Shown here one piece after another: positions 1-62,895 of a stretch of DNA of 64,000 nt. Position numbers and translations under genes: made by a program. Each line of letters starts with the position of its first letter. The stretch's first letter is position 1. The notes below the pieces were generated by a model. That model was given only the letters and a program-made list of their open reading frames with translations, was not told the DNA's origin and did no database searches. The stretch covers positions 594,080 through 658,079 of the forward strand of contig CAVWNY010000001.1 of assembly GCA_963756545.1 (NCBI GenBank). The letters run 5' to 3'. The stretch is from an uncultured Pseudomonadota bacterium. Lineage in GTDB: Bacteria > Pseudomonadota > Alphaproteobacteria > Acetobacterales > Acetobacteraceae.

Positions 1-1
1 G

Positions 2-2447: not shown

Positions 2448-2562
2448 ACCGGACGCGGCCATCGATGGTTGTTGACGCAGGCGTCAGACGGGGAGGCGCT
2501 GATCAAGGTTTGAGTGGGACACCGAGGAGATTTAAGGAGGTAGCAATTCGGCTAGGTGTCAA

Positions 2563-4569
2563 TCAGCCCGCGACGATCAACATATACGGCCTCTCGTCCA
2601 AGGTATTTGTCCCAAAGCCCATCGCCAGCTTGCCGTTCGAGAGATCGGCACCTGTGTAGCCCGCAAGGGTAATAAATGCCGCGCGGCCAGACGCCATTTC
2701 GTGCAAGGTAAGGCCGGAATACGCTGGCACGCCTTGGGTGTCCGCAAAACTGAACTGAGAATCTTGCGGCGTAATCCCCCAGACGACGGCGGCGTCGCCG
2801 GCATGAAAATTCACGAGTGTGTTCCAAGTAACGGGATTGTTTTGTGCGTTCAGAAAGAACGTGTCTGTACCCGACCCTCCGAACAGGAAATTAACCGTTC
2901 CACCGGTGCTATCCAGGACGTTGCTACCGCTTTGTGCAATCAAGATGTCGTTTCCTAAACCGCTTTGGATAAACTCATTCGGTGCTTGTGCCGTGATGCA
3001 GAGGTTATCTGGCGACAAATCGACGAAGGTCTGGCCGTTGCCCGCCACGGTACCAGCGTCGCCAACAATCTGGCCCGTGGTTGTATCCGTGACAAGAAAA
3101 TTCGCAGGTGCTGGTGGGGGGATGTCAACGGGTGATGCACCGCGATCCAGGGAGGACGCCTGAACCGGAATCGTCTGATTTGACTTTGAATTTGACTGCG
3201 GTGCTCCTTGGGCAACCACGTTAGGCGCGCCGGAACTGGTTGTGGTACGCGACGAATAGATAGTGGAAGACACGACCGGCGTAGTCGACATGCCCGATGA
3301 GATCGATCCCGTGACCGAGGCCGCCAACGCAGGGGGCGTCCCGGTGTCAGTTCCAGGAGCCGGGGACGAGCCACTGGCGATAGCGTTGGGAGCGATTGGG
3401 AGCGTGGATCCGGGGGGCGTCCCGGTGTCAGTTCCAGGAGCCGGGGACGAGTCACTCGCGATAACGCCGGGAGCGACAGGAAGCGTGGATGCGGGCGGCG
3501 TGACTGGTGCTACCGACTCGCCTGAAGAAACTGAGATGATGTTGACCATGCCGAGGCTTGCCGCATCGGCCCCGGTTCCATAGCTATATGTTTGCGATCT
3601 ATCCTGAACAACCGATACATTTGCGAACTCGAAGCCTACGGCGAGACTTCCCTGCGGCTCTGGCGTCCCGGCCGGGTTGCCAATTGCCGTTTCCGTTTCG
3701 AGACCAATATACATCGAACCCAGCGTCCAACCGGACATGTTCTGCTCAGCCGCGCCGAGTCCGCTGTGTTCAATTAAGTCGCTGAGATGGGCGTTCAGGC
3801 TGTAGGAGAGGGAGTGCTGAGAGCCGCTGTCTGCCTCGTATGCAAGGGCGGACTCTCCGGGCAAAAGATGACTGTAAGTGATTACCCCGCCGCCACTCGA
3901 CGGTCCTTGCACATTATCATAGAGCGCCCCGGACGCGCCCCCGCCTGAAGCAGAGATCGGTATCTGGATGAACGCAGTCCACGTCGGGAGAGTTGAGTTG
4001 TATGTCGCCGTCGATGGGGCATTGAATGTCGCCACAAATCCAGTGAAGACCTGAGCCAGGACGGCACCGTTGGAAGCTGCGGTCGAGTTGAAATACGCGA
4101 TGTCCGCCTGCGTAATTCTCGCGTCGATCTGGTAGGTGATGGGGCTCGCGAAATTCGCTGTGACGCTTGCCGGAGCGCTGAGAAAAAGGTTCGCCCCTCC
4201 TCTGCTCGACAGGATGCCACCGGATGCGCTGAGATCATAGACCCAGCCGGCATTGTTCACCTGATATGCTTGAAGATGATATGCTTGAAGAGCCGATTCG
4301 CCGTCGCTCGTCGACCATGAGTAGGCGGCGTCGCCGCTAAGTAGATTGTAACTGGAGGGGGCGTTTGTCTGCATCGATGTCGGCTGCAGGTATTGCGCCT
4401 TTGACCACTCGATAACATCCCAGTTTGAGGCATTGCCTGAAATGTCCGGCAAGTTGGGAAAAAACACCGGTTCGTTATTAGCTACTTGCCCAATCCCGAA
4501 GGCCATCTTCGGCCCTTCTACTGAGGGATCAGTGAAGAGTTGGAGACTGGTATCAGACTGGTTTGGCAT
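2563..4569 (-). CDS. large secreted-type repeat protein with RTX-like Ca-binding motifs
   Basis: Long ORF (track 2563..4731, TTG start). I prefer ATG 4569 (MPNQSDTSLQLF...). No N-terminal signal peptide. It has an S/T/P-rich linker with two 27-aa repeats. The C-terminal region carries GLGNDILIA and GGSGTDTFF (GGxGxD nonapeptide-like) motifs. Lower GC than its surroundings. Confidence 0.7.
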   Translation of the reverse strand: MPNQSDTSLQLFTDPSVEGPKMAFGIGQVANNEPVFFPNLPDISGNASNWDVIEWSKAQYLQPTSMQTNAPSSYNLLSGDAAYSWSTSDGESALQAYHLQAYQVNNAGWVYDLSASGGILSSRGGANLFLSAPASVTANFASPITYQIDARITQADIAYFNSTAASNGAVLAQVFTGFVATFNAPSTATYNSTLPTWTAFIQIPISASGGGASGALYDNVQGPSSGGGVITYSHLLPGESALAYEADSGSQHSLSYSLNAHLSDLIEHSGLGAAEQNMSGWTLGSMYIGLETETAIGNPAGTPEPQGSLAVGFEFANVSVVQDRSQTYSYGTGADAASLGMVNIISVSSGESVAPVTPPASTLPVAPGVIASDSSPAPGTDTGTPPGSTLPIAPNAIASGSSPAPGTDTGTPPALAASVTGSISSGMSTTPVVSSTIYSSRTTTSSGAPNVVAQGAPQSNSKSNQTIPVQASSLDRGASPVDIPPPAPANFLVTDTTTGQIVGDAGTVAGNGQTFVDLSPDNLCITAQAPNEFIQSGLGNDILIAQSGSNVLDSTGGTVNFLFGGSGTDTFFLNAQNNPVTWNTLVNFHAGDAAVVWGITPQDSQFSFADTQGVPAYSGLTLHEMASGRAAFITLAGYTGADLSNGKLAMGFGTNTLDERPYMLIVAG
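3332..3493. repeat. 81-bp direct tandem duplication (2 units) inside the repeat-protein CDS
   Basis: ggggcgtcccggtgtcagttccaggagccggggacgag... recurs 81 nt later. The units encode STLPVAPGVIASDSSPAPGTDTGTPPG and STLPIAPNAIASGSSPAPGTDTGTPPA on the minus strand. Confidence 0.85.
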
Positions 4570-4890
4570 GGAAACTTGGTCGCCTTTGAGATTCCTGCCT
4601 TCCAGTGCTAAACAGAGGACTCCTGGGATTTTCCTGGTTCGACAAGCATTAATTGCCTGCGCTCTTTTTTGAGAGAACCTTGTTACTGAACACCGGGTGG
4701 AAAATAGTTCTTTTGTCCTATTTTCCTGCAATTGTGATCTAGAGCTTTTATTGCCCAGACGATGCCGGAGATTTGCGCAGAAACCCTTAACGAATTGTAA
4801 AATTGAATCTAAAATTTATTCTCCTATCCCGATTTTTTGATGGTGAATTGATTTTTTAGAGCGCGCCTTCACCTTCCGTTAGTAACTCGA

Positions 4891-5523
4891 ATGCAACAAA
4901 GTCGAGAGGCGACGAGGATTTTCATGCGGTACAGTCGAACTTTGGTTCTGGCGGCGGCGGCCGTCGCGGCGGTGGCGGCGGACAGGCCAGTGGTCGCTGC
5001 CGATCCGGCTCATTTCGCGGTCATGGGCGTCCGCCTCTACATGAGCGCGCAGGAGGTGCTAGCCGCGCTCTACGCCCAGGGCGTGCGCGAGGATGGGGTG
5101 AGCGAGCATGTCCACCCCTGCGCGCTGCACGCCTCCGCCGCCTGCACCGACAGCATCTCCGCTCGCCTGCCGGACGGGCCGATCACGATCAGGTTCACCG
5201 ACGTGCCCGCCGGCTTCAACGAGGGGCGGGAAGCCGCCGTCAGCGTCGCCTATCGCCTGACCAGTACGCCGAGTACTACCGCCGAAATGCGCGCCGTAGC
5301 TGAACAGCGGTTTGGCCCGCTTTCGGTTGCAACCGATGGCGCCTGGTGCGCCGGCGCGGCGACGACCTGCCCCGAGGACCGTCCGCGGATGGCGTTCCGG
5401 CGTGGCGCTACCGGCGCGGGCGAACTGGCGCTGACCGATCTCGGCCTGCCGGCCCGGCTGACCCTCGGCGCCGGCACGCAATCGGCCCTGGGCGGCCGGC
5501 AGGGCCGCCCAGCGTTGCGTTAA
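4891..5523 (+). CDS. hypothetical exported protein
   Basis: 210-aa ORF. The likely start is ATG 4924 (MRYSRTLVLAAAAVAAVAADRPVVAA..., signal-peptide-like). No recognisable domain. Confidence 0.5.
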   Translation: MQQSREATRIFMRYSRTLVLAAAAVAAVAADRPVVAADPAHFAVMGVRLYMSAQEVLAALYAQGVREDGVSEHVHPCALHASAACTDSISARLPDGPITIRFTDVPAGFNEGREAAVSVAYRLTSTPSTTAEMRAVAEQRFGPLSVATDGAWCAGAATTCPEDRPRMAFRRGATGAGELALTDLGLPARLTLGAGTQSALGGRQGRPALR

Positions 5524-5702
5524 ATGGCGAGAGTTGTGCGAGCCGCTGACCCTGCGGTGCGTTAATCTCAAAATGTTCTGTACGATCTATAATTGCGGAA
5601 GGGGCTGGCCCCTTGGCGGCTGCTAACGGCGAGGCAGTGTTGCCGCCGGGCGGCGGCGATGTGGCAAATCAGCATCCCTCTACCAGAGGTTGCAATTCCC
5701 CA

Positions 5703-5732
5703 TTGACATCGTTGTCAAATCAACTTTAAGTT
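5703..5732 (+). promoter_or_regulatory. candidate sigma70-type promoter with a palindromic -35 region
   Basis: TTGACA (5703-5708), a 17-18 nt spacer, then TTAAGT/TAAGTT (5726-5732). TTGACAtcgtTGTCAA (5703-5718) is a perfect 6-bp inverted repeat. It lies ~30 nt upstream of GGAGGA (5750-5755) and ATG 5763. Confidence 0.3.
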
Positions 5733-5941
5733 GCATCATAACGATGGTCGGAGGACGCCAAAATGGCGGAACAGGTCTTGCCAAGGCTGGTCGCCTTAAT
5801 GATCGAAACAAAAAAGGCGCAAGCGGCTGCGGTGTACGATTTCGGGAAGGTTCGGATCGGCGCATGCGGCAACCCCTCCATCATTCCCTCGTTTGTCCGG
5901 TTCACAATACCTTCGGCCTCTCACATCGCACCGGGCTTACG

Positions 5942-6039
5942 TTCATCGTCATGGCCGGGCTTGGGCCCGGCCACCCACGTCTTCTTCGGGCCGCGAGGAA
6001 AACGTGGGTGCCCGGGCCAAGCCCGGGCATGACGATGAA
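5942..6039. repeat. ~98-nt palindromic intergenic element (REP/MITE-like)
   Basis: Left arm is ttcatcgtcatggccgggcttgggcccggccacccacgt (5942-5980). Right arm is acgtgggtgcccgggccaagcccgggcatgacgatgaa (6002-6039). They form near-perfect inverted repeats of ~38 nt around a 21-nt spacer. Confidence 0.7.
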
Positions 6040-6063: not shown

Positions 6064-7011
6064 TCATCGCCCGCGCATCGCCTCCACGGCCTCCCGCAGC
6101 CTTGCGGGATCGACCGCGATCTCCACCCCCGCGCGCTCGGTCTGCAACAGCATCGCCGCGCGCGAATCCCGATCCGCCCAGCCGCGGTTCATCGCCTCGG
6201 TCATCTCGGCCAGCACCAGGTTCGCCAGCCGCATCGGCACCCCCATCTCGCGGCCCAGCGCGCAGGCGAGCGAGACGTCCTTGTGGGCGAGGCGCAGCGC
6301 GAAGGCGGGCGGTTCGTAGGTGTTGGACAGGAACTGGTCGGGCAGGGCGTCGAACGCGCCGCGCCGCCCCAGGGCACCCTGGCGCACCGCCTCCCAGATC
6401 GCCAGCGGCTCGATGCCGGCCTTCACCCCCATGCTGAAGACCTCGGCCAAGCCCGTCGTCATTATATAGCCGAACATGTTGTGGACGAGCTTGGCGACCG
6501 ATCCGGCGCCGATCGGGCCGACATGGCTCGCCTGGTCGCTCATCGCGTCCAGAACGGGCTTGCAGCGATCGAACACCGCGCGCTCCCCGCCGACCCAGAT
6601 GGCGAGCTTGCCGGACTCGGCGCCACGCGGCCCGCCGCTCACCGGCGCATCCAGCACATGCGCGCCGCGCTCGGCGAAGATGGCATGGACGCGGCGGACG
6701 ACCGTGGGCGCGTTCGTGCTCAGGTCGAAATACGCGCCGTCGGGGCGCATCCCCGCAAGCAGGCCCTGCTCGCCGAGCGCGACCGCCTCCATCTCGGGCG
6801 GGCCGGGCAGCGAGGTGAACACGACGTCCGCCTGCGCCGCGACCGCGCGCGGCGTGTCGGCCCACGCCGCGCCGCTCGCGACCGCCCGATCCGCCGCCGC
6901 GCGGCGCAAATCGTGGACAACCAGCGCGTGCCCGGCCTTCTGAAGGTTGGCGGCCATGCCGGCCCCCATGGTGCCGAGGCCGATGAAACCGATCCGCATG
7001 GCGCTACTCAT
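6064..7011 (-). CDS. NAD(P)-dependent oxidoreductase, 3-hydroxyisobutyrate dehydrogenase (MmsB/GarR) family
   Basis: The N-terminal Rossmann motif MRIGFIGLGTMGAGMA and full-length colinearity fit the beta-hydroxyacid dehydrogenase family. The start is ATG 7011, or more likely ATG 6999. Confidence 0.85.
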   Translation of the reverse strand: MSSAMRIGFIGLGTMGAGMAANLQKAGHALVVHDLRRAAADRAVASGAAWADTPRAVAAQADVVFTSLPGPPEMEAVALGEQGLLAGMRPDGAYFDLSTNAPTVVRRVHAIFAERGAHVLDAPVSGGPRGAESGKLAIWVGGERAVFDRCKPVLDAMSDQASHVGPIGAGSVAKLVHNMFGYIMTTGLAEVFSMGVKAGIEPLAIWEAVRQGALGRRGAFDALPDQFLSNTYEPPAFALRLAHKDVSLACALGREMGVPMRLANLVLAEMTEAMNRGWADRDSRAAMLLQTERAGVEIAVDPARLREAVEAMRGR

Positions 7012-7331
7012 TCTCCGCGAACACCTCGCGCGCGATGTTCGCCGCCGTCATGGCCGCCGGCCAGCCGGCGTAGAAGGCGACATGGGTGATGAGTTCGGAC
7101 AAGTTCCTCCTTGCTCAGCCCGTTGAACAGGGCGCGGCCGAGATGGCCCCTGAGCTGCTCGGGGCGGTAGGTCGCGACCAGCACGGCGCAGGTGATCAGG
7201 CTGCGGTCGCGCTTCGACAGCTCCGGGCGCTCCCAGATGTCGCCGAACAGCGTCTTCTCGGTCACGTCGATCAGCTTGGGGACGGTGGCGCGAACCCGGT
7301 CGCGCGCTGCCGACGAGGGTGGCTTGGCCAT
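7004..7331 (-). pseudogene. carboxymuconolactone decarboxylase (CMD/AhpD-like) family gene with a 1-nt frameshift near its 3' end
   Basis: ATG 7331 is preceded by GGGAGGAAAG. The product reads MAKPPSS...ELSKRDRSLITCAVLVAT...NGLSKEEL in one frame. The family-typical tail SELITHVAFYAGWPAAMTAANIAREVFAENE* continues in a different frame (stop 7004-7006). The switch lies at about 7095-7101 (cttgtCCgaactc). Confidence 0.7.
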
Positions 7332-7460
7332 GATCTTTCCTCCCGCTTGTTGGAGCTGGCATTGCACACCTCCCGGGATTTCGAGTCCAATCGGCGAGCG
7401 GGGGATGCCGGGCGATCGCGACTTGACCAAAAACACCGTCCCGTTGGGGGAGGACATCGC

Positions 7461-8207
7461 ATGGCTGATCAGGACAAGGCGGCGCTGGTGACGGGGAGCG
7501 CGGGCAATATCGGGCGGGGCATCGCGCTGGCGCTGGCGCGCGACGGCTTCCGCGTCCTGGTGACGGCGCGCGCCTCGCGCGAGGGCTGCGAGGAGACGGC
7601 CCGCCTCGTCGCCGAGGCGGGATCGGAGGCGGCGGTGCATCTGGCCGACATCGCCGACCCGGCGCAGGCGCGTGGGCTGGTCGAGGCGGCGGTCGCGCGC
7701 TTCGGGCGGCTCGATGCGCTGGTCAACAACGCCTCGGTCCGCCGCCAGACGCCGCTGGCGGAGATCGGCGCGGAGGAATGGCGCTGGATTCTCGGCAGCA
7801 CGCTCGATGGGGCCTTCTACTGCGCGCAGGCCGCCGCGCCGCACATCGCGCGGGCCGGCGGGGGCAGCATCGTCAACCTCGGCGGCATCTCGGCGCATGT
7901 GGCGCCCCTGGGGCGCGTGCACGTCGCGGTCGCCAAGGCCGGCATGGTCGGGCTGACGCGCGCGCTGGCCCGCGAGCTGGCGGGCGATCGGATCACCGTC
8001 AACGCCGTCGCGCCGGGCGCGATCGACACGGTGCGCGGCCACGCCGCCGGCGGCAACGCAGGGCGCGCGAAGCTGCCCGACAACCTCGCCGCGCGCCCCG
8101 GCACGATCGAGGAGATCGCCGAGATGGTGCGCTACCTCTGCTCGGCCCCGGCGCGCTTCATCACCGGCCAGGTGATCCACGTGAACGGCGGGGCCTTTAT
8201 GGGCTGA
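7461..8207 (+). CDS. SDR-family oxidoreductase (atypical: no catalytic Tyr visible)
   Basis: ATG 7461 follows GGGGGAGGA. It has the TGSAGNIGRG cofactor motif and an NNAS motif. The expected YxxxK is HVAVAK. Only the last 248 aa of the track ORF 7086..8207 look real. Confidence 0.8.
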   Translation: MADQDKAALVTGSAGNIGRGIALALARDGFRVLVTARASREGCEETARLVAEAGSEAAVHLADIADPAQARGLVEAAVARFGRLDALVNNASVRRQTPLAEIGAEEWRWILGSTLDGAFYCAQAAAPHIARAGGGSIVNLGGISAHVAPLGRVHVAVAKAGMVGLTRALARELAGDRITVNAVAPGAIDTVRGHAAGGNAGRAKLPDNLAARPGTIEEIAEMVRYLCSAPARFITGQVIHVNGGAFMG

Positions 8208-51992: not shown

Positions 51993-52045
51993 GCGGCGGA
52001 CCGGCCGAGATCGAGTGCCGCTTCGCGACCGAATTCAGGCCGAAT

Positions 52046-52160
52046 CCCAGCAGCCGGGTCGGGAGACCCGGAGGTCGCCGATCTCGTCGCCTTCATCGCC
52101 AGCCCGCGCGCCGGATACATCAACGGCGCCAATCTGCGGGTCGACGTTCGCGCCGGCGTG
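52046..52160 (+). pseudogene. relic of an SDR gene 3' end
   Basis: One frame reads RIPAAGSGDPEVADLVAFIASPRAGYINGANLRVD, which matches the conserved SDR C-terminal block (iPlgRxGxPeEvAxxvxFLaSxxasyitGxxlxvDGG). There is no N-terminal part, no start codon and no proper stop. Confidence 0.35.
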
Positions 52161-52212: not shown

Positions 52213-52677
52213 ATGCCGCGCACGCTTCTGACCTGGGTGGCGTCGTTCGCCCTCTATCTGCTCTTCGCCGGGCAGGCGAGCCGGGCCGAGTTGTGCGCGG
52301 GCGCGCTTGTGGCAATCACGGGCGCCGCGTTGGCGCTCTATATTCGCACGGCGAGACATCGGCCGATGCGCCTCGCCGCGCCCTGGATGCTGCTGGCCAG
52401 GCGGGTTGCGACGGCGCTCGGGCGCGATACCCTGACCGTGGGCGGCGCCCTGGCGCGGGCGGTGGCCGGCCGGAAGTTGCGGGGCATCACGCAGCGTCAG
52501 GATTTCGAGCCGGGCGGGGAGACGCCCCAGGCGGCCGGTCGCAGGGCGCTGGTGGTCTGGGCGGGCTCCGTCGCGCCGAACGGCTTCGTTTGGCAGGTGG
52601 GGGACGGGAGCGGCGATCTGCTTGTGCATCGCCTGGTTCCCGTGCCGGCGTCGGAGGACAAATCGTGGCCGGTCTGA
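52213..52677 (+). CDS. mrpE: Mrp/Mnh/Pha cation:proton antiporter subunit E
   Basis: ATG 52213 follows GAGGG. The blocks LLTWVASFALYLLFAG and ALVVWAGSVAPNGFVWQVGDGSGDLLVHRL match the MnhE pattern (itLTPGT..v......l.vH.l). Confidence 0.75.
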   Translation: MPRTLLTWVASFALYLLFAGQASRAELCAGALVAITGAALALYIRTARHRPMRLAAPWMLLARRVATALGRDTLTVGGALARAVAGRKLRGITQRQDFEPGGETPQAAGRRALVVWAGSVAPNGFVWQVGDGSGDLLVHRLVPVPASEDKSWPV

Positions 52678-52928
52678 ACCTGGCTTGGCTCGTCGCGGCG
52701 GTCGCCACCATCGTGGCCCTGGTCGGCCCGGTTTTCGGGGCGCTGCGCGGCGATTTGGCGCACCGGATCGCCGCGGTGCAGATGGCCTCCGTCGTCGCGG
52801 CCTGGGCGCTGGTCGAGCTGAGCCTGGCGTTCGGCCAGCCCTCATTTCTCGATCTGGCCCTCACGCTGGGGCTGCTGTCGCTGCCCGGCACGCTGGTGAT
52901 GACGCTGTTCCTGGAACGCTGGTTGTGA
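52665..52928 (+). CDS. mrpF: Mrp antiporter subunit F
   Basis: GTG 52665 overlaps the mrpE 3' end. The 87-aa product has three TM segments, with GDLAHRIAAVQMASV in place of DRixAldl. It is MnhF/PhaF-like. Confidence 0.7.
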   Translation: MAGLNLAWLVAAVATIVALVGPVFGALRGDLAHRIAAVQMASVVAAWALVELSLAFGQPSFLDLALTLGLLSLPGTLVMTLFLERWL

Positions 52929-53215
52929 CGGCTATAACGGACCTGCTGCTCGCCTTCGCGACACTCTGTGTCTGGCTAGGCTGCCTCGGCTTCGTGCGGC
53001 TGCGCGGCGCGCTCGACCGGCTGCATTGTGCGACCTTCGTCGCCAGCACGGCGGGACCGGCGGTGCTCCTGGCGACGTTCGCCACGCGGGGCGGCTCGGC
53101 GTCCGTGGTCAAGGTGGTATTCTTGATGGGCAGCCTGCTGCTGTCGGGGGCGGTGCTGGCGCACGCCGTCGCGCGCGCCCTCACCTGGCGCGGCCGGCAG
53201 GGAGCCGAACCATGA
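52925..53215 (+). CDS. mrpG: Mrp antiporter subunit G
   Basis: GTG 52925 overlaps the upstream stop as GTGA. The 96-aa product has CLGFVRLRGALDRLHCATFVASTAGP, matching the MnhG motif lGllRlpDxxtRlHaxxkxxtlG. Confidence 0.7.
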   Translation: MTAITDLLLAFATLCVWLGCLGFVRLRGALDRLHCATFVASTAGPAVLLATFATRGGSASVVKVVFLMGSLLLSGAVLAHAVARALTWRGRQGAEP

Positions 53216-53472
53216 CGGCCCTGCTGATCGTGCTGTTCCTGTTGACCGCGCTGGCCGGGGCGGGGGTCGCGCTGACCCGCGACCCCCGCCGGCAGGTGCT
53301 GGCGCTGGCGGCGAACGGGATGGTGCTGGCGTTGCTGTTCCTGGCGCTCCAGGCCCCCGACGTCGCTTTTTCCGAGCTGGCGGTCGGCACGGCGGCCATC
53401 CCGCTGCTCTTCCTGGTCGTGCTCGCCGCCATCCGCACCGACCGAAAGCCCGCCAGTGGAAAGCGGGACTGA
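53212..53472 (+). CDS. DUF4040 / MbhD-like membrane subunit (corresponds to the MrpA C-terminal domain)
   Basis: ATG 53212 overlaps the upstream stop as ATGA. The 86-aa product carries the motif LQAPDVAFSELAVGTAAIPLLFL (aPDVAlTEaxvG). Confidence 0.7.
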   Translation: MTALLIVLFLLTALAGAGVALTRDPRRQVLALAANGMVLALLFLALQAPDVAFSELAVGTAAIPLLFLVVLAAIRTDRKPASGKRD

Positions 53473-53475
53473 GCG

Positions 53476-54240
53476 ATGCCCCGGACTGTGCGATTGCTGC
53501 TGTTCCTGGTCTCGATGGGGGGAATCGCGGCGGCGCTGCCCTTCGTGGTGGCGGGGATGCCGCCGTTCGGCGCGCATCCCTTGCCGTATGGCGAAATCAT
53601 CAATTACCTGGCGCCGATCCAGCGCCACGTCACCAACATGGTCACGGCGGTGAATTTCGATTACCGCGGCTTCGACACGCTGGGCGAGGAGATGATGCTG
53701 TTCGCCGCCGTCACCGGCACGGCGGTGCTGCTGCGTGGCAGTCGGGAGGACCAGCCCGTCGATCAGCCGGCGAGGGCCCCCGGACGGCCGATTCTGCCGC
53801 GCAGCGATGCGGCGGCGCTCGCCGGACGGCTGTTCGGCCCGGTGACCCTGGTGTTCGGCATCTATGTGGTCTTGCACGCCCAGCTCACGCCCGGCGGCGG
53901 GTTTCAGGGCGGGGCGATCGTCGCCTCGGGGCTCCTGCTGCTCTATCTCGGCGAGGGTTACCCGTGCTGGCGCGCGCTCATGCGAACCGGCCTGCTGGAC
54001 GCGCTGGAGGGCGGCGGGGCGGCGATGTACGCGATCGCGGGACTGGCCCCGATGGCAGCCGGCGCCAGCTATCTGGAGAACGTCCTGCCGCCGGGGCAGC
54101 TCCGCGCGCTGTTGTCGGGCGGATTGATCCTGATCCTGAACTGGGCCGTGGCGCTGGCCGTGGCGGGCGGGTTCGGCATCCTGTTCGTCGACTTCCTGAA
54201 GGAGACGCGCGCGGAGCCGGAGGGGGAGGGCGGGTCCTGA
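53476..54240 (+). CDS. mrpB: Mrp antiporter subunit B (MbhE-like N-part plus MnhB domain)
   Basis: 254 aa. It has VTAVNFDYRGFDTLGEEMMLFAAVTG and HAQLTPGGGFQGGAIVASG (the MnhB signature). Confidence 0.8.
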   Translation: MPRTVRLLLFLVSMGGIAAALPFVVAGMPPFGAHPLPYGEIINYLAPIQRHVTNMVTAVNFDYRGFDTLGEEMMLFAAVTGTAVLLRGSREDQPVDQPARAPGRPILPRSDAAALAGRLFGPVTLVFGIYVVLHAQLTPGGGFQGGAIVASGLLLLYLGEGYPCWRALMRTGLLDALEGGGAAMYAIAGLAPMAAGASYLENVLPPGQLRALLSGGLILILNWAVALAVAGGFGILFVDFLKETRAEPEGEGGS

Positions 54241-54593
54241 ACGCGCTCGTCAACGCGCTCCCCTGGGCCGTGACGGCGTGGCTCTTCGCGGTCGGAATGT
54301 ACGGCGTGGTCACCAGCCGGCACTACGTCCACCTGATCGGGTGCATGTCGGTCGTGCAGTCTTCCACCTACGTCCTGCTGCTGGCGGCCGGGTTCCGTTG
54401 GGGTGCGGGGGCGCCCATCTTCTTCGACCACCCGCCCGGCACGCCGGCCGTCGATCCGGTCGTGCAGGCGCTGGTGCTGACCGACATCGTGGTGGGTGCC
54501 GCCGTCACCGCGCTGCTGCTGGCGCTGGCGTTACAGTTGCATCGCAAGCGGGGGACGCTCGACCCGGACGCGCTGAAGCCGATGCGGCAATGA
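54237..54593 (+). CDS. mrpC: Mrp antiporter subunit C (NuoK-like)
   Basis: The reading frame gives LNALVNALPWAVTAWLFAVGMYGVVTSRHYVHLIGCMSVVQSSTYVLLL..., which is NuoK/MnhC-like. No ATG, GTG or TTG precedes the first TM, so the start is provisionally CTG 54237, overlapping the mrpB stop. Confidence 0.65.
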   Translation: MNALVNALPWAVTAWLFAVGMYGVVTSRHYVHLIGCMSVVQSSTYVLLLAAGFRWGAGAPIFFDHPPGTPAVDPVVQALVLTDIVVGAAVTALLLALALQLHRKRGTLDPDALKPMRQ

Positions 54594-56359
54594 CCGGGTT
54601 CCTGAGCGGCGCGCTGCCGCCGCTGCCGGTCGCGGTGCCGTTGGCCGTGTCCGGCGTGCTGCTGCTATGCAACCGCCTGCTTCCCGGGCGCGTGCCTGAC
54701 GTCGTGGCCCTGCTGGCCGCACTCTTCGCGGCCGGGGCGAGCGCGCTGCTGCTGCGCGACGCCGCCGCCGGGCCGATCACCTACTGGTTCGGCGGCTGGG
54801 CTCCGCATAGGGGCCAGGTGATCGGGATCGCCTTCGTGATCGGCCAGGCGGGCGCGCTGCTCGCGCTGTTCACGGCGGTACTGACCGCGCTGACGCTGAT
54901 ATTCGCATGGGGATTCTTCGCCGAGGTGGGCACGGAGTTCCACGCCATGATGCTCGTCCTCATGGCTGCGATGATCGGCTTCGCCCTGACGCACGATCTT
55001 TTCAACATGTTCGTCTGGTTCGAGGCGATGAGCGTCACCGCCTTCGCGCTGACCGCCTATGCGCTCAACGAATCCTCGCTGGAAGGCGCGCTGACGTTCA
55101 CCGTCACGAACGGGATCGGCAGCTTCCTGATGCTGGGCGGGATCGGCCTGCTGTACGCGCCCGCCGGGGCGCTCGATTTCGGCGCGCTGGAGACCTTCGT
55201 GCGCGGCGCCCCGAATTCGTCAGTCGTCGCGGCCGCCTTCTGCATGATCGCCGCCGCGCTGCTGATCAAGGGCGCGATGGTGCCGCTGCACTTCTGGCTG
55301 TCGGACGCGCACGCGGTGGCGCCGAGCCCGCTGTCGGTCATTTTCTCCGGGATCATGGTCCCGCTCGGGCTGTTCGGGCTAATGCGGCTCGTCTGGACGG
55401 TGTTTTTTCCCGATCCGGCGGTCCAGCGCCTGGTGCATGGGCTTTTGCTGTGGCTGGGCGCGACGACGACGATCGTGGGCGGGCTGGCCGCGCTGGAGCA
55501 GCGACACATCAAGCGGATGCTCGCCTTCTCCACGGTCTCGCATATGGGCGTGCTGGTGATGGCGCTGGCGCTGGTGACGCCGGTCGGGGTCGCCGGGTTT
55601 CTGGCCTATCTCATCGGGCATGGGATGGTTAAGGCGGCGCTGTTCATGATCGCCGGCATCCTCCTGGCACGGTTGGGGAGCGTCGATGCCATCGTGCTCC
55701 GGGGCAAGGGCCGGGCGCTATGGCCGGCGGGCTTGGCGTGCGCCCTCGGCGGGCTGCTGCTGGGCGGGCTTCCGGTGGGCGTGATGGACCAGGGCGCCGG
55801 CCTGATCGATGCCGGCGCGACCGCGGCGGGGCACGCTTGGACCGCGGCACCGCTGGTGTTGGGGACCAGCCTGACCGGCGCCGCGGTGCTGCGGGCGACG
55901 GGGCGGGTCTTCGCGGGCCTGGGGTCCCGACCGGGCGAGGAGGAAGAGGCGCCGCACGAGAACGAGCGGGAGCCGGAAGATCGACCGCTTTGGCTGATGC
56001 TGGCGCCGCCGCTGGTGCTGCTCGGTGCGGCGCTCGTCTGGAGCGAGGGCGTGCGCCACGCCGCCCGCGCGAGCGCGCGCGGATTTCTGGCGGTGGCCGG
56101 ACAGGCGGGGACGGCGGTTCCGCTTCCGGCACCGCCGCACCCGTTCGTGCCGTGGCTGTCGCTCGGCTTGGGCATCACGGTTGCTGCCTACGATCTCTGG
56201 CGGAGCGTTCTGCCCGCCTCGGCCGTGAATGCGGTCGATCGGCTGAGCGCCCCGCTCTTCGCCGCCATGCTGCGGCTGCACAGCGGGATCATCGGCGACT
56301 ACGTCACCTGGATCACCGTCGGGCTGGCGATGTTCGCGGCCGCGTTGGGGCTGGGTTGA
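54590..56359 (+). CDS. mrpD: Mrp antiporter pump subunit (NuoL/M/N-family, MrpD/MrpA-N-like) with C-terminal extension
   Basis: ATG 54590 overlaps the upstream stop as ATGA. The 589-aa product carries the Proton_antipo_M signature PLHFWLSDAHAVAPSPLSVIFSGIMVPLGLFGLMRL. An acidic linker (SRPGEEEEAPHENEREPEDRP) and ~120 extra residues with further hydrophobic helices follow. Confidence 0.85.
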   Translation: MTGFLSGALPPLPVAVPLAVSGVLLLCNRLLPGRVPDVVALLAALFAAGASALLLRDAAAGPITYWFGGWAPHRGQVIGIAFVIGQAGALLALFTAVLTALTLIFAWGFFAEVGTEFHAMMLVLMAAMIGFALTHDLFNMFVWFEAMSVTAFALTAYALNESSLEGALTFTVTNGIGSFLMLGGIGLLYAPAGALDFGALETFVRGAPNSSVVAAAFCMIAAALLIKGAMVPLHFWLSDAHAVAPSPLSVIFSGIMVPLGLFGLMRLVWTVFFPDPAVQRLVHGLLLWLGATTTIVGGLAALEQRHIKRMLAFSTVSHMGVLVMALALVTPVGVAGFLAYLIGHGMVKAALFMIAGILLARLGSVDAIVLRGKGRALWPAGLACALGGLLLGGLPVGVMDQGAGLIDAGATAAGHAWTAAPLVLGTSLTGAAVLRATGRVFAGLGSRPGEEEEAPHENEREPEDRPLWLMLAPPLVLLGAALVWSEGVRHAARASARGFLAVAGQAGTAVPLPAPPHPFVPWLSLGLGITVAAYDLWRSVLPASAVNAVDRLSAPLFAAMLRLHSGIIGDYVTWITVGLAMFAAALGLG

Positions 56360-57336: not shown

Positions 57337-58635
57337 GTGGATCAGGACACGATCTTTGCCGTCGCGAGCGGCGCGGGGAGGGCGGCCATCACGGTGATGC
57401 GGATCAGCGGTCCGGGAAGCCGGGCGCTGGTGGCAGGATTGTGCCGATCCGTGCCTGCGGCGCGCCGGGTATCGTTGCGGCGATTGCGGGACGGCGGCGG
57501 CGCGGAGATCGACCGGGCGGTGGTCCTCTGGATGCCCGCGCCGGGCAGCTACACCGGCGAGGACTCGGCCGAACTGCACCTGCATGGGGGGCACGCGGTG
57601 CAGGAAGCGGCGGCCTCGGCGCTGGTGGCCCTCGGAGCGCGTCCGGCCGAGCCGGGGGAGTTCACCCGACGCGCCTTCCTGAACGGCCGGCTCGACTTGC
57701 TGGCGGCGGAGGCGGTTGCCGATCTGGTAAATGCCGAAACGTCCGTCCAGCGCGAGCAGGCGCTGCGCCAGCTCGCGGGCGAGTTGGGTGCGCTCTACGG
57801 CGGCTGGTCGGATCGGCTGCTGCGCCTGATGGCCCGGCAGGAGGCGCTGATCGACTTTCCGGAAGAGGATATCCCCGACGAGATGGAGGGCGCCGTCGTG
57901 GCGGAAATAGCGCTTCTCCGGGCGGAGTTGGCGGCGCATCTCGCCGACGATCGGCGGGGCGAGCGGGTTCGGGAGGGCTTGGTGTTCGCCGTCGTCGGCC
58001 CGCCCAATGTCGGGAAATCGTCGTTGGTCAACGCGCTGACGGGCCGCGACGTCGCGATCGTCTCCGCGCAGCCGGGAACCACGCGCGATGCGCTGGAAGC
58101 GCGCGTGGTGCTGGGCGGCGTTCCAGTGACGCTGGTGGACACGGCGGGACTGCGCGAGCCGATCGATCCGGTGGAGGGGGAGGGCGTGCGGCGGGCTCGG
58201 GCGAGGGCGGCAGGCGCCGATCTGGTCATCGCCGTCGAGGCGTGCGGCGAGGCGCGCCCGGATCAGGGCGATCAGACCGCGCGCGTCTTGCGGGTCGTCA
58301 ACAAGATCGATCTAGGCGGCGCGGTGCTGCCGCCGGACACGCTCGCCGTCAGCGCGCGCACCGGCCAGGGTTTGCCCGGGCTCACGGAGCGCCTGGGCGT
58401 CATCGCCACCGACCTCACGGCACGCGTCGGGCCGCCGCCGCTCACGCGCGCGCGACACCGGGCGGCTCTACACGAGGCCGAGGCCCGGCTGGCTGGGGCG
58501 CGTGATGCGCCCTTGCCCGAGCTGCGGGCCGAGGACCTCCGGCTGGCGTTGCGCGCGATTGGTCGGGTAACCGGGCGGGTCGGGGTGGAGGCGATCCTCG
58601 ACACGCTGTTCGCGGAATTCTGCATCGGGAAGTGA
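57337..58635 (+). CDS. mnmE: tRNA modification GTPase MnmE
   Basis: 432 aa. It starts DTIFAVASGAG, has the G1 motif GPPNVGKSS and DTAG, and ends in the C-terminal FCIGK. Confidence 0.95.
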   Translation: MDQDTIFAVASGAGRAAITVMRISGPGSRALVAGLCRSVPAARRVSLRRLRDGGGAEIDRAVVLWMPAPGSYTGEDSAELHLHGGHAVQEAAASALVALGARPAEPGEFTRRAFLNGRLDLLAAEAVADLVNAETSVQREQALRQLAGELGALYGGWSDRLLRLMARQEALIDFPEEDIPDEMEGAVVAEIALLRAELAAHLADDRRGERVREGLVFAVVGPPNVGKSSLVNALTGRDVAIVSAQPGTTRDALEARVVLGGVPVTLVDTAGLREPIDPVEGEGVRRARARAAGADLVIAVEACGEARPDQGDQTARVLRVVNKIDLGGAVLPPDTLAVSARTGQGLPGLTERLGVIATDLTARVGPPPLTRARHRAALHEAEARLAGARDAPLPELRAEDLRLALRAIGRVTGRVGVEAILDTLFAEFCIGK

Positions 58636-58744
58636 CTTCCTGGCGCGCGCCGGGGTGCGGCATTCTGCAGGCTTCGGATGTCTTTTGACTTGGGCGTCGC
58701 CGTAGCCTAGCCGGCGATTTCCAACACTCTGAGCAGAGGATCGC

Positions 58745-60610
58745 ATGGGGCCGGGCTATGACGTGGTGGTGGTCGGGGGCGGACACGCCGGCTGCGAGGC
58801 GGCCGCCGCGGCGGCGCGCATGGGCGCGCGCACGCTGCTGCTGACACACCGGCTGGAGGCGATCGGCGAAATGTCCTGCAATCCGGCGATCGGCGGGATC
58901 GGCAAGGGCCATCTGGTGCGCGAGATCGATGCCCTTGACGGGCTGATGGCCCGGGCGGCGGATCTGGCGGGCATCCATTTCAAGGTTCTCAACCGGCGCA
59001 AGGGCCCCGCCGTGCGCGGGCCGCGCGCCCAGATCGATCGTGCGCTTTACCTGCGCGCCGTGCGCATGCTGCTCGATGAGCAGCCGAATCTGGAACTTCG
59101 GGCCGGCTCGATCGAGGATGTGGAGATCGGTGCCGACGGGGCGTTGGCGGCCGTGCTGTGCGCCGACGGGCACCGCATTCCGTGCAACGCGGCCGTGCTT
59201 ACCGCCGGGACGTTTCTGCGAGGAATGATCCACGTTGGCGACCGCCGGACCGAAGCCGGGCGCATGGGGGACCCGCCCTCGCTCGGGCTGGCGGGGACGT
59301 TGCGACGGCTCGGACTTCCGACCGGGCGGCTGAAGACGGGCACGCCGCCTCGGCTGGACGGGCGTAGCGTCGACTACCGGGGATTGGCGGCCGACCCCGG
59401 CGAGGACCCGCCCGAGCCGTTCAGCACGATGACCGCGCGCATCCGCAACCCCCAGGTGGCGTGCCATTGCACCGCAACCACGCCGGCGACGCATGCGATC
59501 GTACGGGCCAGCCTGCACCGCTCGGCGCTTCACGCCGGGCACATCTCCGGGCCGGGGCCCCGCTACTGCCCGTCACTGGAAGACAAGGTGGCGCGTTTCG
59601 CGGAGCGCGAGCGGCACACGATCTTTCTCGAACCCGAGGGGCTGACGGACCACACGGTGTATCCGAACGGTATCTCGATGAGCCTGCCCGAGGAAGTGCA
59701 GCGCGCCGTGCTGGCCACCATTCCAGGGCTCGAGAGGGCGCGCATGATCCGCCCCGGGTATGCGGTCGAGTATGACTTCGTCGATCCCCGCGCCTTGTCG
59801 CCAGGGCTGGAGCTGCGCGCCGTTCCGCGCTTTTTCCTTGCCGGGCAGGTCAACGGCACGACCGGCTACGAGGAGGCGGCGGCGCAGGGCATTCTGGCGG
59901 GGATCAACGCCGCTCGGCTCGCGGGCGGGCGGGAGACGATCGGCCTCGACCGGAGCGAGGCGTACATCGGCGTCCTCGTGGACGATCTCGTCGGCAGGGG
60001 CGTGACGGAGCCATATCGAATGCTGACCTCGCGCGCCGAGTACCGGCTCAGCCTGCGGGCCGACAACGCCGACCTCCGGCTGACGCGGAAGGGCATGGAG
60101 TGGGGGTGTGTCGGAGGTGCGCGCGCCGCTTCCTTCCTCGCCCATGAGCGACGGACAGCCGACGCACTCGCGCGATCCCGCGCCGAGGGCGAGGCACCGG
60201 CGGAATTGCGGCGGCTGGGGCTCGAGGTGCGCGCCGATGGGCGCTGGCGGTCGGTGTTCGAACTGCTGGGCGGCATGTCGGAGCGCACGGAAGCGGCCTT
60301 TCCGTGGATCGTGGAATTGCCGAGCCGCGTGCGCGAGCAGCTCCGGATCACCGCGCTCTATGCCGCTTATTTGCCTCGACAGAACGCCGACATCGGCCTT
60401 TTTCAACGCGAGGAGGCCGTATCGCTGCGGGGGCTGGACTTCGCCAGCATTCCGGGGTTGTCGACAGAGGCGCGCCAGCGACTCACGCGAAGCTCGCCAG
60501 ACTCCCTGGGCGCTGCGGCGCGGCTGGAAGGGATCACGCCGGCCGCGCTCGCCGTGATCGTTGCGCAGCTGCGGCGAGGTCGCGGGATCTCAGACGAACG
60601 CTTCACATGA
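58745..60610 (+). CDS. mnmG: tRNA uridine 5-carboxymethylaminomethyl modification enzyme MnmG
   Basis: 621 aa. It has [14 protein letters not shown] and [16 protein letters not shown]. Confidence 0.95.
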
Positions 60611-61209
60611 AGCAATCTTCGATGCTGAACGATGTTTCACGGGAAGCACTGGACCGCTTCGCCGCGCTACTGCTGCGGTGGAACCGGAATATCAACCTGA
60701 TGGCCCGCGGTGACGAGCCCCATGTGTGGCCGCGCCATATCGCGGACTCGCTCCAGCTTGCTCCGCTCATTCCAGCAGAGGCCGGGCGCTGCGTCGATCT
60801 CGGGTCCGGCGCCGGATTTCCAGGACTGGTCCTGGCGCTCGTGACAGGACGGCCATTCGACTTGATCGAGTCGGACCAGCGCAAGGCGGCGTTCTTGCGG
60901 GAAGCCGCCCGTATCACGCGAGCCCCCGTGCGGGTACACGCGATCCGGATAGAGGCGGCGACCATGTCGCCCGCGCCGATCGTGACGGCACGCGGGCTCG
61001 CGCCGCTGCCCGACCTGCTTTGCCTCGCCAATCCGAAGCTTGCCGCGGGCGGGATCGCCCTGCTGCTGAAGGGTGCCGGACACGAGATCGAATTGACGCG
61101 GGCGCGACGCGAGTGGCACATGAAGGTCGAACGAATCCCGAGCCGCACCGCGCCGAGCGCCGTCGTCCTCAAGATCAGCGAGCTTCGCCGTGTCCCATCT
61201 TCCGCCTGA
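60607..61209 (+). CDS. rsmG: 16S rRNA (guanine527-N7)-methyltransferase RsmG
   Basis: ATG 60607 overlaps the mnmG stop as ATGA. The 200-aa product has the SAM motif [15 protein letters not shown]. Confidence 0.9.
60633..60648. promoter_or_regulatory. degenerate parS-like site inside rsmG
   Basis: TGTTTCACGGGAAGCA matches 14 of 16 positions of the canonical TGTTTCACGTGAAACA. It lies ~0.5 kb upstream of parA. Confidence 0.35.
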
Positions 61210-62047
61210 GCCGTCCGGGGCGCCGCGACGTGGACCACGCATCCTGGCCGTGGCGAATCAAAAGGGCGGGGTCGGCAAGACGACGACGGCGGTCAACCTC
61301 GCGACCGCCCTGGCGGCCGGCGGAGAATCCGTTCTGTTGATCGATCTGGACCCCCAAGGCAATGCCTCGACGGGGCTCGGCATCCAACGCGAGGACCGAA
61401 CCCTCGGCAGCTACTGCGTGCTGGTGCTGCATACCCCTCCGGAGGATGCAGCACGGTCAAGCGGCATCCCAAATCTCTCGATCGTCCCGGCGGAACCCGA
61501 TTTAACGGGGGCTGAAGTCGAGCTGGTCGGCTTCGAGCGGCGGGAATACCGGCTGTCCGATGCCCTGGCGTCCCTACGCGGCGCCGTCCACCCGTTCGGT
61601 TTCGTGCTGATCGACTGCCCGCCCAGCCTAGGGCTGCTCACGTTGAACGCCTTGGTGGCGGCCGACGCGGTGCTGGTTCCCCTGCAATGCGAGTACTACG
61701 CCTTGGAGGGCATCAGCGGCCTCGTGCGCACCATCGACGCCGTCAGGCGGACGCTGAACCCCGGCCTGCGGCTGCAGGGTATCGTGCTGACGATGTTCGA
61801 TCGCCGCAACACCCTGTCGACTTTGATCGCCGATGACGCGCGCGGCTTCTTCGGCGCGGCCGTCTATGAGACCGTCATTCCGCGCAACGTGCGCATCACC
61901 GAATCGCCAAGCCACGGCAAGCCGGTCCTGCTCTACGATTTCCGGTCTCCGGGCGCGCAGGCCTATGTTCGCTTCGCGGCCGAGCTGCTCCGGCGCGAGC
62001 GCGCCGTGGACCAAGCTCCTCCCATAAGCGCCGGGGCGCATCCATGA
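61190..62047 (+). CDS. parA: chromosome partitioning ATPase ParA
   Basis: GTG 61190. It has the deviant Walker A NQKGGVGKTTT. Length is 285 aa. Confidence 0.9.
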   Translation: MSHLPPEPSGAPRRGPRILAVANQKGGVGKTTTAVNLATALAAGGESVLLIDLDPQGNASTGLGIQREDRTLGSYCVLVLHTPPEDAARSSGIPNLSIVPAEPDLTGAEVELVGFERREYRLSDALASLRGAVHPFGFVLIDCPPSLGLLTLNALVAADAVLVPLQCEYYALEGISGLVRTIDAVRRTLNPGLRLQGIVLTMFDRRNTLSTLIADDARGFFGAAVYETVIPRNVRITESPSHGKPVLLYDFRSPGAQAYVRFAAELLRRERAVDQAPPISAGAHP

Positions 62048-62895
62048 GCACCCGCGAGACCGGTGCGCGGCTCGGGCGCGGGCTGGCAGCCCTGCTCGGC
62101 GACGGAGCCGGCACGCAATCGGCGAGCGAGGGCGTGCGCTCGTTGCCCCTCGACGTCCTGGCGCCGGGCCCATTTCAGCCGCGCGGCGCGATGGACGAAG
62201 CCGGGTTGGCGGAGCTCGCAGACTCCATCCGCGCGCGCGGGATTCTCCAGCCGCTTCTCGCCCGCCCGCATCCGGACGTTTCCGGCCGCTATCAGATCAT
62301 CGCTGGGGAACGACGGTGGCGCGCCGCGGCACTGGCCGGGCTGCATGAGGTTCCGACCCTGGTGCGCGACTTCGCCGACGCGGATGCGCTCGCCGCCGCG
62401 CTGGTCGAGAATTTGCAGCGCCAGGATCTGAATGCGCTCGAGGAGGCCGAGGGCTATCGCGGATTAATCGAGGAATTCGGGCTGACGCAGGAGCAGCTCG
62501 CCCAGGCTGTGGGCAAGTCCCGCGCCCATATCAGCAATACGCTTCGCCTGTTGAACCTCCCGAGCGCCGTGAAATCGGCGCTGCTGGCCGGGACGGTCAC
62601 CGCAGGCCATGCGCGGGCGCTGCTCGCGCATCCCACGCCGGAACACGCACTCACCGCCGTCATCGCGAACGGGCTTTCCGTGCGCGCGACGGAGGCGCTG
62701 GCGTCCGAGCCGGGCCGCGATCGCGCGCCGCGTCCTCCGCGCGATCCCGACATGGTCGCGATCGAGCGGGAGCTGTCCGGGCTTTTGGGATTGCGGCTCG
62801 AAATCGCCGGGTCCTACGCCCGGGGCGCGGTCCGCATCAGTTACGCGAGCGCCGATCAGCTCGAGGGCGTGCTGTCGAAGTTGCGATCCGGGTAA
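62044..62895 (+). CDS. parB: chromosome partitioning protein ParB
   Basis: 283 aa. It has GRGLAALLG, the arginine patch IIAGERRWRAA and the HTH region QEQLAQAVGKSRAHISNTLRLL. Confidence 0.9.
   Translation: MSTRETGARLGRGLAALLGDGAGTQSASEGVRSLPLDVLAPGPFQPRGAMDEAGLAELADSIRARGILQPLLARPHPDVSGRYQIIAGERRWRAAALAGLHEVPTLVRDFADADALAAALVENLQRQDLNALEEAEGYRGLIEEFGLTQEQLAQAVGKSRAHISNTLRLLNLPSAVKSALLAGTVTAGHARALLAHPTPEHALTAVIANGLSVRATEALASEPGRDRAPRPPRDPDMVAIERELSGLLGLRLEIAGSYARGAVRISYASADQLEGVLSKLRSG

Follow-up and report, generated by a model that had tools for sequence, protein, structure and literature searches.

We analysed a 64,000-nucleotide stretch of DNA from an uncultured bacterium of the Acetobacteraceae (Alphaproteobacteria; assembly GCA_963756545.1, contig CAVWNY010000001.1, positions 594,080 to 658,079), referred to here as the window, and concentrated on an operon at window positions 52213-56359 that encodes a set of Mrp-type membrane subunits. 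The operon comprises seven translationally coupled genes, all on the forward strand and all with intact reading frames, as read directly from the sequence. The mrpE-like (MbsA/MbhA-like) gene at 52213-52677 starts with ATG and encodes 154 amino acids; it is overlapped by 13 nt by mrpF (52665-52928; GTG start, 87 amino acids), which in turn shares a GTGA overlap with mrpG (52925-53215; 96 amino acids). Next come a free MbhD/MbsD-like (DUF4040) gene (53212-53472; 86 amino acids), joined to mrpG by an ATGA overlap, and, after a 3-nt gap, a gene (53476-54240; 254 amino acids) for an MbsE-like fusion protein with an MbhE domain at about residues 1-95 and an MnhB/MrpB domain at about residues 116-233. 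NuoK-like mrpC (54237-54593) follows through a CTGA overlap and encodes 118 amino acids if CTG 54237 is its start. The last gene, coupled to mrpC by ATGA, encodes a Proton_antipo_M pump of 589 amino acids (54590-56359), the single antiporter-like subunit, which ends in a C-terminal extension (residues ~455-589; 55952-56356) composed of an acidic linker, five helices and the motif LHSGxxGDYVxW. An earlier note, written from this DNA alone, had described seven tightly coupled genes with ATGA, GTGA and 13-nt overlaps, and the junctions read as it said. Its subunit list holds for E, F, G, the DUF4040 protein, C and the single pump, but not for its 'MnhB', which is the MbhE+MnhB fusion and matches MbsE over its full length.

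The start of mrpC is unusual. ATG, GTG and TTG are all absent at the expected position, where the homologous codon is CTG 54237; in the closest relative, locus L003, it is ATG (GTCCTGAAC here; GTCATGACC in L003). The fusion gene and mrpC therefore overlap by CTGA where ATGA would be usual. Starting instead at the nearest canonical codon further on, GTG 54270, would cost 11 residues and reach into the first transmembrane (TM) helix. The CTG could be a rare CTG start, could be served by translational coupling or could be a sequencing error. No RNA gene was found in the window by an Rfam scan and no promoter by a promoter scan of it; its terminator-like sites fall within genes, at a frequency no higher than in shuffled sequence.

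To identify the subunits, we used Pfam and compared family profiles with the sequences of solved structures. The check that the earlier note had proposed confirmed F (PF04066), G (PF03334), MbhD (PF13244), the B gene (PF04039), C (PF00420) and D (PF00361), with PF20501 giving a weak match. MrpF scored 31.9 bits, and its family profile found MbhB first (E = 4e-13), then MbsB, then MrpF. MrpG (35.8 bits) led to Anoxybacillus MrpG (5e-12), MbsC and MbhC, and the DUF4040 protein (46.8 bits) to MbhD (6cfw_D, 1.9e-6) and MbsD (1.2e-5). For MrpC (PF00420, Oxidored_q2, 67.9 bits) the order was MbsG (5e-25), MbhG, MrpC. The fusion protein matched PF04039 with 77 bits and PF20501 weakly in its N-terminal part. 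It aligned with MbsE over the full length (6u8y_E; residues 29-242 against 25-230, E = 2.3e-20) and also separately with MbhF and MbhE; MbsE itself unites MbhE with MbhF in one protein (PMC8415708). The mrpE-like protein matched nothing in Pfam or NCBIfam, but a profile of 26 family members matched MbsA (6u8y_A, E = 1.5e-6), MbhA (0.009) and Anoxybacillus MrpE (0.016), so that the identity given in the earlier note stands on solved structures and not on Pfam.

The pump matched PF00361 with 167 bits and, among solved-structure sequences, MbsH (151 bits) ahead of MbhH (136), MrpD (120/110), MrpA (74) and NuoL (63). Its AlphaFold2 model (predicted local distance difference test 88.5, predicted template modelling score 0.92) had MrpD chains as top Foldseek matches. 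Given the full-length match to MbsE and the matches of the other subunits, the gene boundaries are those of MbsA, B, C, D, E, G and H. These comparisons argue that the subunits are nearer to the membrane arm of the Pyrococcus membrane-bound sulfane reductase (MBS) and membrane-bound hydrogenase (MBH) than to canonical Mrp. The likeness to Mbh that the earlier note had drawn from gene order is also supported by sequence, with MbsH, MbsG, MbsE, MbhD/MbsD, MbhB and MbsA as best matches.

The C-terminal extension sets the pump apart from these relatives. At 589 amino acids, the pump is about 100 longer than MrpD or MbhH (MrpD, MbhH and MbsH have ~490-510), and the extension, ~135 amino acids long, is present in all full-length family members. 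In the AlphaFold2 model its helices span residues 467-483 (hydrophobic), 485-502 (amphipathic and basic), 520-536 (hydrophobic), 543-563 (amphipathic) and 568-588 (hydrophobic), a secondary structure compatible with a TM-amphipathic-TM layout. No Pfam family matched the extension in the 34 members scanned. When 177,635 distinct sequences of solved structures were searched with a profile built from the whole extension or from just the final 58 positions, the one natural match, a weak one, was the C terminus of MbhI (6cfw_I residues 78-113; DHTGLLPDYVSYL). The likeness to MbhI comes solely from these profile searches; a padded query for MbhI homologues, meant for profile comparison, yielded no candidates. 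In the Foldseek comparison, NuoL chains aligned with the pump over ~630 columns, compared with ~505 for MrpD. In MBH, it is MbhI that contributes the lateral helix, an element universal in the superfamily, along with two transmembrane helices, and these keep MbhH in place (PMC8165549). We infer that the pump probably carries its own lateral-helix clamp, in which case the operon would encode equivalents of MbhA-I.

We also considered whether the extension exists elsewhere as a separate MbhI-like gene, and rejected this. At L083 (2595-4360) the pump is called as two genes of 468 and 119 amino acids. The first part loses the frame ~25 codons ahead of the conserved LWLMM, and reading on in the other frame recovers the consensus of the family; the frameshift is probably an assembly error. 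A library of clusters at 50% identity searched with the extension contained many proteins of ~119 amino acids that begin at the same conserved Met. These are probably the same artefact, given their common starting Met; the context examined was that of L083. PF10125 was likewise discarded as a domain of the extension, because its match in the homologue P0025 falls within the core of the pump (residues 121-237).

Family hidden Markov models (HMMs), run through three iterations, found each subunit once and no second pump or other Mrp subunit in the 64-kb window, in agreement with the earlier note's single pump and missing MrpA pump domain. Canonical operons of groups 1 and 2 have two pumps and the order A(B)CDEFG; here there is one pump in the order E-F-G-MbhD-(MbhE+B)-C-D, a difference that the note had also seen. 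Operons without mrpA are classified as group 3 Mrp (PMC8415708). The window operon has the complete group 3 set: B, C, D, E, F and G together with the MrpA C-terminal domains (MbhD and MbhE). It is a member of this known class with a common arrangement, a bacterial variant and not a categorical novelty.

The closest studied system is the stand-alone mrpEFGBB'CD operon of Pyrococcus furiosus (PF1147-1153; Haja et al. 2021), which has been analysed by deletion; its loss raised sensitivity to acidification and altered Na+-dependent H2 production (PMC8415708). The literature on group 3 and stand-alone Mrp also includes PMC5703873. The two operons share the order E-F-G, MrpA C-terminal and MrpB domains, C, D, a single MrpD-type pump, the absence of mrpA and of an adjacent redox module, and the presence of the other Mrp domains. 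They differ in host, an archaeal hyperthermophile against a bacterial, mesophilic, high-GC aerobic-type genome, and in how the domains are joined: in P. furiosus one protein (MrpB) combines MbhD with MbhE and leaves MbhF on its own (MrpB'), whereas here MbhD stands alone and MbhE shares a protein with MnhB, as in MbsE. The homology table for the P. furiosus operon lists no MbhI equivalent (PMC8415708), in contrast to the ~135-amino-acid extension of the window pump, a comparison drawn from that table. Several canonical residues are, furthermore, replaced in the clade to which the window belongs.

Structurally, the best or near-best matches for six of the seven subunits lie in MBS (MbsA-E, G, H; PDB 6U8Y) and MBH (MbhA-I; PDB 6CFW). 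The subunit boundaries are identical to those of MbsA, B, C, D, E (fused), G and H, and the C-terminal motif of the pump matches the MbhI C terminus, although weakly. Unlike the window operon, MBS and MBH have a second pump (MbsH', in MBS), an MbhM/MbsM anchor and NiFe-hydrogenase-like subunits, none of which was found with the operon; MbhI is a separate gene in MBH and the MbhI-like element is fused to the pump here, and the TM8 Lys position of MbsH is Glu in the family and neutral in the window's clade. Canonical Mrp/Mnh/Pha/Sha systems of groups 1 and 2 (mrpABCDEFG, mrpA'CDEFG; PDB 6Z16, 7QRU, 7D3U) have homologous B-G subunits and an MrpA C-terminal domain, and belong with the window operon to the cation:proton antiporter 3 superfamily. 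They differ in gene order, in having two antiporter-like subunits instead of one, with the MrpA pump domain (TM1-16) missing here, in their lower sequence similarity than Mbs/Mbh, and in the essential MrpF Asp and MrpG Pro that are replaced here. Group 3 clusters with several mrpD genes (Aphanothece mrpCD1D2EFGAB; Solemya symbiont MrpEFGBBCDD; Verruconatronum MrpEFGBCD1D2D3) likewise lack a full-length MrpA and have free MbhD/B-type genes, and some share the E-F-G-B-C-D order, but they have two or three pump genes as opposed to exactly one per locus in the window's family. Among these, the Aphanothece cluster alone has been shown to be a Na+/H+ antiporter (PMC5703873).

The arrangement is widespread. 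The pump has thousands of homologues, and the best 120 are nearly all 575-623 amino acids long, a length that includes the extension; among their sources are Acetobacteraceae, Stellaceae, Rhodopila, Acidiphilium and Steroidobacteraceae. When one genome per species was scanned, at least 595 relatives were confirmed, the best 80 of which belong to Alpha-, Beta- and Gammaproteobacteria, Actinomycetota (including Streptomyces and Embleya), Planctomycetota, Chloroflexota, Acidobacteriota, Eremiobacterota and Dormibacterota. Culturable mesophilic carriers include Roseomonas, Methylobacterium/Methylorubrum and Streptomyces. The survey of gene order that the earlier note had proposed found E-F-G-MbhD-(MbhE+B)-C-D, as far as the contigs reach, in every one of 82 related loci, which represent at least seven phyla; each locus, taken with 10 kb of flank on both sides, has exactly one gene for a pump; the identical order means that the arrangement is not due to chance. 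Neighbouring genes are unrelated between loci, about 70 of the 82 having no conserved neighbour at all, so that the seven genes themselves are the unit.

We estimated the ratio of nonsynonymous to synonymous substitution rates (dN/dS) against the syntenic L003, whose pump is 87% identical. The ratio was 0.06 for C, 0.11 for MbhD, 0.13 for D, 0.15 for MbhE+B, 0.21 for mrpF, 0.27 for mrpG and 0.53 for mrpE; MrpC is also the most conserved subunit, with a mean column identity of 69%. These results point to a selected, self-contained unit under purifying selection rather than a remnant.

On these grounds, and with moderate confidence, we propose that the operon encodes a complete and functional stand-alone group 3 Mrp of the Mbs/Mbh type, a minimal secondary cation/proton exchanger. 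In the assembly that we infer, MrpE, MrpF, MrpG and the MnhB domain would form a cation module, MbhD, the MbhE domain and MrpC a small composite proton path, and the MbsH/MrpD-like pump the only full antiporter-like proton path. The extension of the pump (TM helix, amphipathic helices, TM helix) would act as a lateral-helix clamp that holds the complex together, its counterparts being MbhI in MBH, the MbsH' tail in MBS, the MrpA tail in Mrp and the NuoL tail in complex I. As there is no redox or MrpA input module, a secondary exchanger is the most likely function: existing gradients would drive the exchange of a monovalent cation for protons, and the complex might help to keep pH or ion levels steady, the role suggested for the stand-alone Mrp of P. 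furiosus.

To ask which functional residues are present, we placed the MBS residues named in PMC8165549 on the window's proteins through pairwise HMMER alignments. The pump conserves the TM5/TM7 pair of E145 (MbsH E138) and K227, as well as H241, K308 and, in TM11, H344 and K348. E55 of MbhD corresponds to MbsD E58, and the QAPDV motif of this protein is kept across the family. In MrpE, P122 is invariant and H139 nearly so across the family; in MrpF, R34 corresponds to MbsB R31 and D63 to MbsB D60; in MrpG, R32 (MbsC R35), H34, K63 (MbsC K70), H80 and R84 are conserved. The fusion protein keeps the motifs NFDxRGFDTLGEE and TPGGGFQGG (MrpB motif PGGGFQGG), and MrpC has an invariant Q41, at the position of MbsG E37, and an invariant D83.

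Several observations weigh against a conventional exchanger of this kind. In the window's clade a number of residues that the literature holds essential for Na+/H+ exchange are replaced. MrpF has Q39 at the 'absolutely conserved' position of MbsB D36, MrpG has A76 at the position of the helix-breaking MbsC P83, and the pump has P258 at the TM8 Lys position (MbsH K250) and the neutral A403 at the TM12 Lys position (MbsH K393). Of the canonical charged axis of antiporter-like subunits such as NuoL/M/N, MrpA/D and MbhH (TM5 Glu, TM7 Lys, TM8 Lys/His, TM11 His/Lys and TM12 Lys/Glu), the window pump has the TM5, TM7 and TM11 residues, and D400 lies near the TM12 position. H33-R34 of MrpF occupies the position of the MbsB D30-R31 pair. 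The hallmark residues of the cation path (the equivalents of MbsB D36, MbsC P83 and MbsB D30/R31) are not found as such in the window; they bear on function (PMC8165549), not on the definition of the class. The NCBIfam models give the subunits the same names as Pfam, but all matches are far below equivalog cut-offs and the family is therefore divergent. The match of the extension to MbhI is weak (E = 0.11-0.2 over 36 residues at the MbhI C terminus), the start codon of mrpC is non-canonical, and the absence of mrpA is established for the 64-kb window, so that an mrpA-like gene could lie elsewhere in the genome.

The driving force of the P. furiosus system is unknown, as its authors stress (PMC8415708), and we found no paper that describes or tests the bacterial one-pump variant; bacterial clusters in E-F-G-B-C-D order receive passing mentions in genome papers, each with two or three D genes. 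The earlier note had called a one-pump Mrp in such a context poorly characterised. This is correct in that no antiport has been characterised biochemically, but the class had already been named (group 3) and its P. furiosus example studied (PMC8415708). The note had also said that its reading would fall if this were simply the common, characterised Mrp type with ordinary antiport: common it is, but antiport has not been demonstrated, and the reading survives.

The replaced residues follow phylogeny. In a neighbour-joining tree with midpoint rooting, the 24 proteobacterial pumps, the window's included, form one clade. All 24 are uncharged at the TM8 position (Pro, Ala, Ser or Gly), and the 41 pumps of Actinomycetota all have Glu there. 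At the TM12 position 23 of 24 proteobacterial pumps are neutral and 33 of 41 actinobacterial ones have Lys. The same split is seen in the small subunits: at the MbsB D36 position of MrpF, Gln in 20 of 23 proteobacterial and Glu in 31 of 37 actinobacterial loci; at the MbsC P83 position of MrpG, Ala in 21 of 24 and Pro in 34 of 36, respectively. Most non-proteobacterial members of the family have Glu in MrpF and Pro in MrpG at these positions. MbhH and MbsH both have Lys at the TM12 position, and because these canonical relatives carry it, the proteobacterial state at TM12 is derived. The ion chemistry in the proteobacterial clade is uncertain.

The most serious alternative is a derived function in Proteobacteria, in which the complex still assembles but has lost Na+/H+ exchange, protonatable and ion-binding residues having gone from the exit half-channel of the pump and from the MrpF/MrpG cation path. 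It might transport a different ion or work by another route, K+ or a flow of H+ alone via D400/D407 being examples, or its role might be that of a passive conductance or a sensor. The four changes co-occur and are specific to one clade, within which purifying selection persists, and in canonical Mrp replacement of the equivalent MrpF Asp by Leu abolishes antiport (PMC8165549). D400, a conserved Asp of the pump, lies three residues ahead of A403, and an Asp at this distance before the lost Lys is found in 14 of 23 proteobacterial members. On the other side, Gln could still ligate Na+, and the TM5 Glu/TM7 Lys pair, the TM11 His and Lys, MbhD E55, MrpE H139 and MrpF D63 are all kept. E407 of Escherichia coli NuoM is a precedent for a carboxylate in TM12. 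Finally, the Na+ path through Mrp, MBH and MBS is itself disputed, with three incompatible structural proposals (PMC8165549). We consider a derived function unlikely.

A broader form of this idea, to which we give slightly less credence, is that the family holds two functional states, an ancestral-like state with the full set of charges (Actinomycetota, Planctomycetota, Eremiobacterota and others) and a derived proteobacterial one. In some lineages of the former, coupling to an adjacent formate dehydrogenase could constitute an undescribed formate-linked ion-translocating complex; the latter would be not a Na+/H+ antiporter but a re-purposed ion-translocating or sensing complex. The formate dehydrogenase operon concerned, of actinobacterial type, abuts the cluster in about 10 of the 82 loci, in Actinomycetota, Eremiobacterota and Planctomycetota. 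Its products are an alpha subunit, which scores 1918 bits with NF041513 (cut-off 1400) and whose gene is often split by a TGA in frame, the pattern that selenocysteine would give, a 4Fe-4S subunit and a membrane subunit resembling NrfD. The operon is downstream and co-directional in L070 (12195-17175), L046 and L063 (3226-8710), and upstream and divergent in L066 (1722-6953), L065, L051, L057, L038 and L050; in L066 a gene for a GPR1/FUN34/YaaH-family channel (6901-7662) stands between it and mrpE.

The same operon is relevant to a further possibility, that the seven genes encode a membrane arm energised by a partner encoded elsewhere, either a redox enzyme that brings a membrane anchor of its own or an MrpA/NuoL-like subunit encoded as an orphan. 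Homologous modules are energised in this way by MbhM/MbhI-JKLN or MbsH'-M, and the window's module is, subunit by subunit, the membrane arm of MBS/MBH, possibly including an MbhI-like element, whose place in MBH is at the boundary to the redox module. The ~10 formate dehydrogenase operons among 82 loci, a raw count uncorrected for background, would be candidate partners, and in L027 (Chloroflexota) a molybdopterin enzyme is encoded downstream, farther off. However, no link to formate dehydrogenase was found in the proteobacterial loci, where L007 gave a weak match to a different molybdoenzyme, and about 70 of the 82 loci have no conserved neighbour of any kind. In the window, no redox module is encoded within 52 kb upstream or 7.6 kb downstream of the operon. 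Neither the NuoH-like MbhM/MbsM nor the NiFe subunits J, K, L and N of MBH/MBS-type respiratory systems were seen in these flanks, where no NuoH- or NiFe-specific profile search was made, and no conserved NuoH/NiFe-type neighbour or NuoH/MbhM-like gene was seen with the cluster in any of the 82 loci, again without a search aimed at NuoH/MbhM. We regard a docking module, which the earlier note had offered beside a minimal antiporter as one of two possibilities, as improbable.

That the operon is a decaying, non-functional remnant of a larger Mrp or respiratory operon, as the missing mrpA, the CTG start of mrpC, the divergent mrpE (no Pfam match, dN/dS 0.53) and the fragment of a short-chain dehydrogenase/reductase (SDR) pseudogene just upstream might suggest, is scarcely credible and we reject it, since seven frames are intact and coupled, all 82 loci share the architecture although they belong to different phyla, six of the genes have dN/dS values of 0.06-0.27 and many membrane-embedded charged residues are invariant.

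If the operon encodes the stand-alone exchanger that we favour, then with one pump, no redox input and no MrpA it would be the smallest natural version of the Mrp machine. The only studied example of the one-pump, MrpA-less type is that of a hyperthermophilic archaeon (PMC8415708), and the presence of an equivalent operon in many culturable mesophilic bacteria is a practical opening. With the lateral-helix-like element probably built into the pump, it should be possible to express the complex and study its structure as a self-contained unit. The proteobacterial clade also amounts to natural mutagenesis: one monophyletic group has neutralised four supposedly essential positions in genes that are still under selection, and comparing the two states could reveal which residues are truly needed for exchange. 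For genome annotation, the prediction is of an intact and probably functional Mrp-like system of ion homeostasis. Three features may interest specialists: the MbhI-like extension fused to the pump, the joint loss of supposedly essential residues in a single clade, and the formate dehydrogenase operons beside the cluster in others.

The neighbourhood of the operon in the window is consistent with a stand-alone system, as the earlier note had stated: no hydrogenase, sulfane-reductase or Nuo peripheral genes are attached to it. Upstream lie genes for GlnE and a YhdP/AsmA-like protein, and downstream genes for an SDR, MnmE, MnmG and ParA. The note had also reported an SDR relic on the upstream side next to the AsmA-like gene, and we were able to verify this. 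After the YhdP/AsmA-like stop codon and ahead of mrpE, a stretch of ~150 bp (51993-52144) codes for the C-terminal end of an SDR (DPEVADLVAFIASPRAGYINGANLRVD), matching positions 197-232 of 236 of the adh_short_C2 profile with E = 2e-4. It is missing in the otherwise syntenic L003, where two blastn blocks abut. An SDR gene lies downstream of the cluster both here and in L001. As a conserved neighbour of the family, however, the SDR was rejected: one occurs within 5 kb in 9 of 82 loci, on mixed sides and in mixed orientations, a frequency that by rough estimate is at chance level for so large a family.

In three Streptomyces loci (L072, L077 and L082) the family mrpG HMM had no match in the gap of ~240-300 bp between mrpF and MbhD, and the mrpE matches were short. 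These loci have either very divergent E and G subunits or a modified cluster.

Beyond the cluster and the SDR, positions 57337-62895 of the window hold mnmE, mnmG (gidA), an open reading frame (ORF) of rsmG size, parA and an ORF of parB size. MnmE, MnmG and ParA were confirmed by Pfam, and the rsmG- and parB-like ORFs were assigned by position and size. The gene set mnmE-mnmG-rsmG-parA-parB typically adjoins the chromosomal replication origin. At the other end of the window, positions 1-6000 have a guanine-plus-cytosine fraction of 0.58-0.59, compared with ~0.66-0.75 in the remainder, and may be a foreign or otherwise atypical segment.

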